NCBI GenBank assembly: GCA_009836005.1
Contig: VXWG01000010.1
Span: 69,675-133,674 of the forward strand
DNA from: Candidatus Palauibacter irciniicola
GTDB taxonomy: Bacteria > Gemmatimonadota > Gemmatimonadetes > Palauibacterales > Palauibacteraceae
Length of the DNA: 64,000 nucleotides
Direction of reading: 5' to 3'
How positions within the stretch are numbered: the stretch's first letter is position 1; each line of letters opens with the position of its first letter. Below are positions 48,832 through 51,556 of the stretch, piece by piece. Position numbers and translations under genes: made by a program. The notes under the pieces were generated by a model. That model made no database searches. It had not been told where the DNA came from and saw nothing but the letters and a program-made list of their open reading frames with translations.

Positions 48832-51556
48832 CTAGACCGGCTCGACCCTCACGGGGCAGACCTTCAACTCGGCCGTGTGCGTGATCGGGTCGTAGCCGCC
48901 TCCGGTGAGGAAGTTCACCGGCACGTCGTTGAAGCTGAATGACGCGAACACGGTCCCGGGCGGGGATCGGTCGTTCGCCTCGACCTTGATCCGCACCTCG
49001 CCGCGCGGGCTCGACATCATGGCCCAGCCGCCGTCCTCGAGACCCCATTTCGACACGTCGGTCGGGTGCATCTCGAGGCGCTCTTCCGACAGCAGGTACT
49101 CGATCCCCGCCGCACGCCCCGTCTGCGTTCTCGTGTGATAGGCCGGCAGTCGGCGCCCCGTCGTAAGCCAGATCGGGTATTCCTCCGAGATCGTCTCCGC
49201 CGGATCCCGGTACCGGATCAACTGGAAGATCCCGCGCCCGTTCTCGAACTCGCCCTGGTGAAGGATGGGCGTGCCGGGGTGACCCCGCTCCGGCACCGGC
49301 CAGTGGTACTCGCCGTGCTCGATGACGTCCCAGTCCAGGCCGGCGTAGATCGGCGAGAGCGAGCAGAGTTCGTTGAACACCTGCTTGGCCGACTCGAACT
49401 CGAAGCCCTTCAACCCCATGCGCTGCGCGATACGGGACACGCACCACCAGTCGGGCTTCGCCTCGCCCGGCGGGTCCACCGCCTTCCGCAGACGCTGAAC
49501 GCGCCGCTCCGTGTTGGAGCACACGCCGTCCGTCTCCGCCCACGCGGTGGCCGGGAGCACGACATCGGCCAGCTGCGCCGTCTCGGTGAGGAAGATGTCG
49601 ATCACCACGAGGTGGTCGAGACTCCTGAGCGCATGCTCGCAATGCTCCCGGTCGGGGTCCGTGACGACAGTGTTCTCGCCGTTGATGATCATGGCGCGGA
49701 TCCGGTCGCCGCACATGTCGAGTGCCGTGACCTTCGTGGGCCCCAGTTCCAGGTCGACCTCCCGACCGTAGGCGGCGGCGAACTTCGCCTGGTACGCCGG
49801 GTCGAGTACGTCCTGGAAGCCGGGGTAGTTGTTCGGCAGCGCCCCGGAGTCTCCCGCGCCCTGGATGTTGTTCTGGCCGCGCATCGGATTGATCCCGGTC
49901 CCCTCGCGGCCGACGTTGCCGGTCATGAGGGCGAGATTGCAGAGACTCTGCACGTTGTCCACGCCGCAGATGTGCTCCGTGATCCCGAGCGTGTAGTAGA
50001 TTGCTCCGCGTTCGGCCTTCGCATACCAGCGCGCCGCCTCCGCGATCAACTTCGCGTCCACCCCGGTGATGGACTCGGCCCATTCCGGCGGGTATTCCAG
50101 GACGTGCTCCACGAAGTCCCGGCCTTCCGTCGTGCGCGCGGCGACGAAGTCCTCGTCCATCAGTCCCTCGCGCGCGATCACGTGGGCCATGCCGAGCAGG
50201 AGCGCGACATCGGATCCCACCCTCAGCGGCAGGTAGATGTCGGCCATCTCGGCCAGCGCAATCCGTCTCGGATCGGCAACGATGAGCTTGGCGCCCTGGG
50301 CCACGGCGCGCTTGATACGGGTGGCCGCAACGGGATGGCACTCGGTCATGTTGGTCCCGATACAGAAGATCACATCGGGCTTATCCATGTCCGCGAGTGG
50401 ATTCGACATCGCCCCCCGTCCGATAGAGGCCGCCAGACCGGCGACCGTGGGAGCGTGTCAAGCACGGCTGCAGTTGTCGATCTGGTTCGTACCGAACGCG
50501 CCTCGGATGAACCGCTGCATCATGTAGGCGGCTTCGTGCGGCGCACGTCCGGAGGCGACGCCGTACACCGAATGCCTGCCGTGATTCTCCACCGCCGCCG
50601 TGAACCCCGCCGCCGCGCGGTCGAGGGCCGTGTCCCAGTCGGTTTCGTGGAGTTCGCCGTCCTCGCCCCGCACCATCGGATAGGCCAGCCGGTCGGGGTG
50701 CTGCACGAAGTCGAACGCGAACTGCCCCTTGACGCAGAGCGCGCCCTCGTTGGCGGGCCCATCCATCGCCGGCTGGACGCCGATCAGCTTGTCGCCCCGC
50801 GACATCAGGTCGACGGCACACCCGACGCCGCAGTACGGGCAGACGGTCCGCGTCTTCTCGGTCTCGCCCGGCACGTCCGCGTTCGCGAGCGCCTTGATGT
50901 CGGCGAGGGCTCCGGTCGGGCAGGTCTGCACGCACTGCCCGCAGAACGTGCACGCCGAGTCTCCCAGCAGGCCCTCGAACTCCGTGGTGATCTGCGTCTC
51001 GAATCCGCGGTTCATGACCGAGATCGCGTAGTCGCCCTCCTGCTCGGCGCACACCCGCACGCAGCGGTAGCAGGAGATGCAGTTCTCGTAGTCTCGGAGG
51101 ATGAAGGGGTTGTCGTCGTCCGGCCGGCTGCGGCCGGACCTGGCCCCGGCGAAGCGGCCCGTCCGGGCGTCGTAGCGGTCGAGCAGGACCGCCATCTCCT
51201 GCGAGGCGTATCCGGAGAGCGGGTCGACATCCATGTCGCGGTTCTCGGAGGCGACCATCTCCATCAGCACGCGGCGGTGCATGTCGAGCCGCGCCGATCG
51301 GGTCGTGATCCGCATCCCGGGCTCCGCCCGCATGGTGCAGGAGGCGACCGGGTTGCGGGCGCCGTCGAGTTCCACGATGCAGAGGCGGCAGCCGCCGAAG
51401 GCTTCCAGGCGCGGATCGTAGCACAGCGTCGGGATCTCCTTGCGGTGCCGCTCGGAGACCTCGTACAGGCTCTCGCCCCGACGGACGCCGACCTTCTCGC
51501 CGTCGAGCGTGATCTCGAAGTCGAAGCCCGTGCCGTTGCCCGAATTGTCGCTCAAA
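48832..51556 (-). CDS. fdhA: NAD-dependent formate dehydrogenase catalytic (alpha) subunit, a selenoprotein: in-frame TGA (Sec) at 50458-50460
   Basis: The N-terminal part (2Fe-2S and 4Fe-4S domains, ...[11 protein letters not shown]) ends at a TGA. The downstream ORF continues in the same frame ([43 protein letters not shown]), aligning with E. coli FdhF CARV-U-HGPSVAGL....DLVFVFGYNPADSHPI. The likely start is TTG at 51556 with a GGAGG RBS; the ORF upstream of that is Arg-rich. Confidence 0.8.
50413..50457 (-). other. bacterial SECIS-like element immediately 3' of the UGA-Sec codon
   Basis: mRNA: UGA CA[CGCUCCC]ACG[GGUCGCC]GGUCU[GGCGGCC]UCUAUCGGAC[GGGGGCG]. This is a two-tier hairpin with an apical GGUCU(G) loop like the E. 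coli fdhF SECIS, starting 2 nt after the UGA. Confidence 0.6.

Follow-up and report, generated by a model that had tools for sequence, protein, structure and literature searches.

Within a 64,000-nucleotide stretch of contig VXWG01000010.1 from Candidatus Palauibacter irciniicola (hereafter the window, meaning the whole of the stretch analyzed), we examined a locus on the minus strand that gene callers divide into two open reading frames (ORFs) at an in-frame UGA codon. The locus is very probably a single gene encoding the catalytic α-subunit of a formate dehydrogenase of the FdsA/Fdh1A type, a soluble, NAD-linked enzyme that uses molybdenum or tungsten, and its product a selenoprotein in which the UGA specifies selenocysteine (Sec). 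The original prediction had joined the ORFs at 50458..51900 and 48832..50409 into one gene, and this is borne out by translation of the minus strand from 51900 to 48832, which stays in one frame with the TGA at 50460..50458 as its sole internal stop. On this reading the gene is an ordinary selenoprotein gene with a slightly variant selenocysteine insertion sequence (SECIS), overlooked in an uncultured, sponge-associated lineage of the Gemmatimonadota.

The protein obtained by reading through the UGA carries, in order, the Pfam domains Fer2_4 and Fer4_Nqo3 at its N terminus, followed by Molybdop_Fe4S4 (residues 233-286), Molybdopterin (residues 289-711) and Molydop_binding (residues 795-901), the last three being the set expected of a formate dehydrogenase α-subunit. 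With U replaced by C, the joined protein scores 727.2 bits against the NCBIfam equivalog model for Fdh-alpha (TIGR01591), which clears the cutoff of 666.25, whereas the fragments alone fail (544.6 bits for the C-terminal and 133 bits for the N-terminal part). Among solved structures it comes closest to the α-subunits of formate dehydrogenases linked to NAD (PDB 7vw6/7e5z, E 8e-192; 6tg9, E 6e-188), and E. coli FDH-H (PDB 1aa6) is matched with an E-value of 3e-148. In the α-chains of 7vw6 and 6tg9 the column of the UGA holds the active-site Cys, which is followed by the conserved His. Alignment by blastp to the RefSeq E. coli FdhF, annotated as "selenocysteine-containing" (38% identity over 689 amino acids, E 1e-160), places codon 366 on Sec140 without a gap, so that the TGA falls, as had been expected of it, on a position held by Sec or Cys in known enzymes. 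The surrounding residues had also been said to match the E. coli segment CARV-U-HGPSVAGL residue for residue; the gap-free alignment stands but the identity does not. The sequence U366-H-A-P fits the motif U-H-x-P, which is listed for FdhA selenoproteins as "UHxP" in Table 1 of PMC13188914.

E. coli FdhF has a homologous molybdopterin catalytic core, with its UGA in the same column of C-x-R-x-U-H-x-P-x-V-A-G-L, but it is without the N-terminal 2Fe-2S/4Fe-4S extension that resembles NuoG, and it acts in the formate-hydrogen lyase complex and not with a NuoEF diaphorase. The best full-length matches, covering both the Fe-S N terminus and the Mo/W domain, are the chains deposited as "tungsten-containing formate dehydrogenase alpha subunit" (7vw6) and "formate dehydrogenase subunit alpha" (6tg9), which we take to be Methylorubrum extorquens FoDH1 and Rhodobacter capsulatus FdsA, respectively. 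These enzymes differ from the window protein in having Cys at the metal-ligand position (CHasS and CHsPt), where the window has a UGA and, putatively, Sec.

The reading frame of the original prediction holds, with a small revision at the 5' end. The GTG at 51900, which overlaps the upstream gene, is an unlikely start, and the likeliest start, which is almost certainly the true one, is the TTG at 51555. This codon has GGAGGU 4 nucleotides upstream and lies 14 codons ahead of the conserved ITLDG motif, relatives starting 9-14 codons ahead of the same motif; it is also the start picked by the ENA gene call and the sole candidate start kept in the related locus L004. Elsewhere in the window TGA is an ordinary terminator, ending 17 of the 32 confidently coding ORFs, and the code is therefore not reassigned, which rules out a genome-wide change in the meaning of UGA. 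Scanning the window for in-frame TGAs flanked by coding signal gave no second selenoprotein candidate, the hits being gene junctions and antisense shadows only.

Relatives of the gene were collected from GTDB, with a single genome scanned for each species, and 80 loci with 75-98% protein identity were obtained. Nearly all belong to the Gemmatimonadota (Candidatus Palauibacter, Longimicrobiales and Gemmatimonadales), the remainder to a few other phyla, and many come from sponges and marine sediments. Every one of the 80 shares the TGA at this codon and has an unbroken frame to either side of it, and TGC is found here in none. Pairwise ratios of nonsynonymous to synonymous substitution (dN/dS) against nine relatives are 0.04-0.23 and similar up- and downstream of the TGA, with dS reaching values above 1, indicating that both halves are under purifying selection.

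After the UGA, the mRNA reads CACGCUCCCAC and then GGUCGCC-GGUCU-GGCGGCC, in which GGUCGCC (50446-50440) pairs with GGCGGCC (50434-50428) around a GGUCU loop (50439-50435). The always-paired core of this upper stem consists of 50445-50440 with 50434-50429. In an alignment of 81 sequences (A1), with pairing scored over the 68 distinct ones, the six core base pairs are formed in 100% of sequences, and one of them changes from CG to UA (6 sequences) or to GC (1 sequence) without ever being broken. Both columns of this covarying pair are synonymous third positions, in a Val and an Ala codon. Codons +5 to +9 after the UGA (V-A-G-L-A) are frozen at 91, 100, 100, 100 and 91% identity; the GCC, GGT and CTG codons are those that are 100% identical, GGT making up 6.2% of the Gly codons in window genes. 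For most other four- and sixfold degenerate codons of invariant residues, taken from ∼40 codons before the UGA to 60 codons after it, 3-6 synonyms are in use with 40-80% identity, and a few codons close to the UGA and within the lower helix have only 2 synonyms and >90% identity. By these substitution patterns the structure of the upper hairpin is kept beyond the demands of the encoded amino acids.

The hairpin resembles known bacterial elements in its dimensions. The published consensus has a loop of 3-9 nucleotides that opens with two Gs and then G or U, an upper stem of 4-16 bp, and 16-37 nucleotides from the UGA to the apical loop (PMC13188914). The window element fits this consensus with its 5-nucleotide GGUCU loop, a stem of 6-7 bp, and a spacing of 18 nucleotides from the UGA to the G that opens the loop (21 if counted from the U). 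The SECIS of E. coli fdhF, with a sequence that matched 5419 of 5426 complete E. coli genomes (within features annotated fdhF among the records listed), derives its GGUCU from the same Gly-Leu codons (GGU CUG) at the same 18-nucleotide distance, and the claim of an apical GGUCU loop like that of fdhF is upheld in both loop and offset. The two elements are not the same in detail, in that a U is bulged out of the E. coli stem and its GGUC loop is A-U-closed, whereas the window stem is continuous with a U.G wobble, and the former matches the Rfam family SECIS_2 (RF01988) at 87 bits, whereas the latter matches SECIS_3. The fdhF gene of Desulfobaculum bizertense (WP_233815417.1), for which the RefSeq/PGAP coding sequence is annotated across the in-frame TGA, has the TGA followed at the same offset by GUGGCC-GGUCU-GGCCAC, a hairpin that keeps the structure of the window hairpin via base changes. 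This gene is unlike the window gene in being of the shorter FdhF type (a coding sequence of ∼690 amino acids), in being carried by the plasmid of a sulfate-reducing bacterium and in sharing only 49% identity with the window over a 138-amino acid probe. The GGUCU hairpin is absent from four Cys-type (TGC) homologues, those of Methylobacterium, Sinorhizobium, Azospirillum and Microvirga, and a search for the motif in a fifth Cys-type homologue that was fetched, from Deinococcus, gave no match. A text search with a putative Moorella SECIS sequence (GCCGGUCUGGC) gave no match, and that resemblance is a tentative lead only.

Several observations weigh against the assignment as a selenoprotein gene and have to be set beside these data. 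The genome is a metagenome-assembled genome (MAG), known here from sequence alone. Folding of the region past the UGA does return the predicted hairpin, with a minimum free energy (MFE) of -31.5 kcal/mol for 68 nucleotides (z = -2.65), but the MFE z-scores are modest: a 46-nucleotide segment gives z = -0.13, the true E. coli element reaches no more than z = -1.33, and folds of about equal stability are obtained for Cys-type homologues (-16.3 kcal/mol in Azospirillum). Folding energy is a poor discriminator at 68% GC, and we therefore relied on conservation and covariation. What had been described as a two-tier hairpin directly 3' of the UGA stands in its upper tier, which is always paired and shows compensatory change; the lower tier fares less well, with 82% of cells paired across relatives and no clean covariation.

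Further points of this kind come from Rfam. The window sequence aligns to the full SECIS_3 model (RF01989, positions 1-59/59), starting 3 nucleotides before the UGA, with 47.7 bits and an E-value of 2e-10 for the 171-nucleotide stretch searched, a score below the gathering score of 63 that sets the threshold for membership. At gathering thresholds Rfam gave no match in the window, and SECIS_3 emerged only at E-value thresholds. The seven relatives tested, six of the clade and the Desulfobaculum fdhF, likewise match SECIS_3, those of the clade along its entire model, with scores of 33-61 bits, all below 63; the loci named for such sub-threshold matches are L025, L036, L044, L072, L073, L075 and L088. 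The shortfall arises because the bulged U of the model is replaced in the clade by a U.G wobble, with the 3' arm shifted by one, and because model pair 18-33 never forms in the clade. As a description of the clade the SECIS_3 consensus structure was rejected, since it fits worse than the MFE structure (70% versus 86% of cells paired). Since the E-values are significant, we treat the window element as a putative sub-threshold variant of a known SECIS class and not as a curated Rfam member.

The last of the points that count against a selenoprotein concern the decoding machinery. ARAGORN found no tRNA genes in the 64-kb window and no tRNA-Sec in loci L001-L060. Searches by tblastn gave no match to selA, selB or selD in the window and the 80 loci, with E. 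coli queries that divergent homologues could escape; the sel genes are therefore unlinked to the fdh locus. By their Pfam domains, the remaining genes of the window are core chromosomal genes, with no sel genes among them. The presence of selA, selB and selD in the genome is reported in a published KofamScan table. The 525-amino acid downstream ORF of the window occurs exactly in GCA_009840115.1 (contig VXOJ01000063.1), a Candidatus Palauibacter MAG in which 21.6 kb of the contig is 100% identical to the window, and this MAG is among the 48 of the Palauibacterales description (PMC10469786). In the table of KEGG orthology (KO) assignments that accompanies it (PMC10469786, supplementary file 10), selD (K01008) is scored in 43, selA (K01042) in 41 and selB (K03833) in 38 of the 48 MAGs, and all three are scored as 1 for GCA_009840115.1 and for the three named species of L001, L003 and L004. 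The expectation that the organism carries selA, selB and selD agrees with this table.

These data bear on the possibility of a read-through that needs no selenium, the UGA being translated for instance as Cys or Trp through near-cognate decoding or a mis-charged tRNA-Sec, with the hairpin merely promoting the process. That neither tRNA-Sec nor sel genes were found in the window or the loci scanned would suit such a scheme, but we consider it very improbable given that selA, selB and selD are reported in the same assembly and in 38-43 of the 48 Palauibacterales MAGs (PMC10469786), that the GGUCU loop of the hairpin is of the specific SelB type and sits at the canonical distance, and that 17 of 32 neighboring genes end with TGA as a normal stop. 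Moreover, TGC would give Cys at no cost, yet it occurs in 0 of the 80 relatives.

Little credence can likewise be given to a split enzyme, in which translation would stop at the UGA to release a 365-amino acid Fe-S protein and re-initiate at the ATG at 50409 to produce a 525-amino acid molybdopterin protein, the two assembling without Sec. This ATG does lie 16 codons past the UGA, with a G-rich run ahead of it as a possible Shine-Dalgarno sequence, and proteins of 525 amino acids are entered in databases. However, all relatives keep the reading frame through the 16 intervening codons, with which a split enzyme would lose the catalytic His as well as the position of the Sec/Cys ligand, and the supposed start is the conserved internal Met of a GAMSN motif that is present in E. 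coli FdhF too; the synonymous freeze and the covariation point to an RNA structure and not to an initiation region.

A pseudogene or sequence error, with a Cys-type gene inactivated by a nonsense mutation from TGC to TGA or by faulty assembly, might be suspected from the two ORFs of the gene callers and the metagenomic source, but it is effectively refuted by the conservation data, because the same TGA in 80 of 80 independent genomes, down to 75% identity, and purifying selection as strong downstream as upstream (dN/dS 0.04-0.23) exclude it, and in addition the frame never shifts in relatives and the sequence is identical in independent NCBI and ENA assemblies.

For the selenocysteine-containing formate dehydrogenase that we favor, the surroundings of the gene (Table 1) provide candidate partners. 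The NuoE-NuoF fusion lies directly upstream of the α-subunit gene in the same orientation; the NCBIfam models for NuoF, HoxE and FDH-gamma match it below their cutoffs, and it presumably resembles the FoDH1 β-subunit. The components of an FdsABG/FoDH1-type enzyme are all found here, namely a NuoG-like Fe-S N terminus in the α-subunit, an adjacent NuoE/NuoF diaphorase and an FdhD-type gene, and judged by their homologies the three genes correspond to the set expected for a formate dehydrogenase that is soluble and NAD-linked. On the other side, an aconitase-family gene (46717-48813, plus strand) converges on fdsA with 18 nucleotides between the stop codons; its product has an Aconitase_C-type domain ahead of the main Aconitase domain, in swapped order.

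Table 1. Features of the formate dehydrogenase locus (window coordinates)
Feature	Position	Strand	Details
Formate dehydrogenase alpha subunit gene (FdsA/Fdh1A type, very probable)	48832..51555	-	907 aa; Sec predicted as residue 366; TTG start (almost certain), TGA stop
In-frame UGA, probably read as selenocysteine	50458..50460	-	Codon 366; Sec/Cys alignment and conservation
Putative SECIS, upper stem-loop	50428..50446	-	GGUCGCC / GGUCU / GGCGGCC; MFE -12.2 kcal/mol, z = -2.9 (19 nt)
Putative extended SECIS region, with lower helix taking in the UGA	50403..50463	-	68-nt fold; Rfam SECIS_3 match (sub-threshold) at 50405-50463
NuoE-NuoF fusion, presumed NAD-reducing diaphorase (beta) subunit	51681..53345	-	554 aa; Pfam 2Fe-2S_thioredx, Complex1_51K, SLBB, NADH_4Fe-4S
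fdhD, formate dehydrogenase accessory sulfurtransferase, divergent	53464..54300	+	Pfam FdhD-NarQ, E 2e-65; NCBIfam NF001943, 306 bits (cutoff 269)

In the mechanism that we propose, UGA codon 366 would not be read as a stop during translation. Rather, the hairpin, with its G+C-rich stem of 6-7 bp capped by GGUCU and its loop 18 nucleotides after the UGA, would act as a bacterial SECIS and recruit SelB-GTP carrying Sec-tRNA(Sec), allowing selenocysteine to be inserted. The resulting Sec366, followed by His367, would be the protein ligand of the Mo or W bis-molybdopterin guanine dinucleotide cofactor, which FdhD would sulfurate. The α-subunit would partner with the NuoE-NuoF fusion, and electrons would pass to NAD+ via flavin mononucleotide and Fe-S clusters. 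For selenocysteine insertion, SelB binding, the identity of the metal, the coupling to NAD and the direction of the reaction, we infer this scheme from homology.

The forecast that standard callers would mis-annotate the gene proved correct, as the NCBI and ENA gene calls split it into 438 or 365 amino acids plus 525 amino acids. The same is seen in the databases, where 5.8 billion proteins were searched and each of the 120 top matches is a C-terminal fragment of 518-546 amino acids that covers 57-59% of the query, under the name "molybdopterin-dependent oxidoreductase," "YjgC" or "formate dehydrogenase major subunit." The last of these functions, K00123 in the KO table, has a score of 0 there for GCA_009840115.1 as well as for all of the sponge Palauibacter MAGs (PMC10469786), including MAGs that have an intact TGA-containing gene. 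It is missing there because the gene is cut in two and the fragments miss the curated family cutoffs. The word "formate" is absent from the main text of PMC10469786, neither "formate" nor "selen" occurs in the further Gemmatimonadota comparative-genomics literature that we examined, and searching the literature on Gemmatimonadota for formate metabolism or selenoproteins turned up nothing relevant.

On balance, we lean toward the view that a selenium-dependent, NAD-linked formate dehydrogenase is a conserved but overlooked trait of marine Gemmatimonadota (Palauibacterales, Longimicrobiales and sponge symbionts), with close copies in MAGs labeled Acidobacteriota, Anaerolineae and Latescibacteria. 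If so, every copy is split at the Sec codon into fragments that fall below the family cutoffs, with a SECIS below the Rfam threshold, and formate oxidation (or CO2 reduction) together with a need for selenium is missing from the Gemmatimonadota comparative genomics examined. The correction would add formate/NAD(H) metabolism and a requirement for selenium and for Mo or W to the inferred physiology of Gemmatimonadota that are abundant in sponges and marine sediments. The mechanism itself is known, this being the most common bacterial selenoprotein family with standard SelB/SECIS decoding, and no concept is changed. The practical value is in annotation, given that the gene is systematically split in the public calls of this lineage and that Rfam-based annotation will not flag the SECIS variant of this clade at its threshold.

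Two observations on the distribution of the gene may be added. One Longimicrobiales genome has two paralogous copies ∼330 kb apart (L047 and L053, contig CAXXCM010000005.1), both with the TGA and the hairpin. MAGs labeled Acidobacteriota and Anaerolineae (L075 and L076) contain copies with 75-77% identity that share the TGA and the hairpin, and a fragment (protein P0105) is labeled Latescibacteria; these labels suggest either horizontal transfer or errors of binning or labeling.

The rest of the window holds several unrelated features. A gene set of the kind found at origins, comprising dnaN (23606-24775, minus strand), dnaA (25016-26470, minus), yidC (27390-29108, plus) and a gene for a ParA-like ATPase (32069-32980, plus), indicates that the replication origin is probably near 26.5-27.4 kb of the window. 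At the window edge (1-3273, plus) is a second molybdenum-enzyme cluster, of the xanthine dehydrogenase/CO dehydrogenase family, in which a MoCoBD_1/2 large subunit, truncated at the start of the window, is accompanied by a FAD_binding_5/CO_deh_flav_C subunit and a protein of the cytochrome b561 type. A 255-amino acid protein (3672-4439, minus) has a Spondin_N domain (Pfam PF06468, E 1e-44), here in the genome of a sponge symbiont; this domain is typical of animal extracellular-matrix proteins. Glycine cleavage genes are found in two places, with gcvP and gcvH together (15076-18469, minus) and gcvT ∼25 kb away (42982-44064, minus), where it adjoins genes for the 2-oxoacid dehydrogenase E1-beta and E2 components. 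Finally, at 57173-59256 on the plus strand (1154-3237 of L081/L082), ENA calls proteins of 317 and 376 amino acids where NCBI has a single epimerase-family protein of 595 amino acids, a conflict that suggests an uncertain start or possible frameshift.

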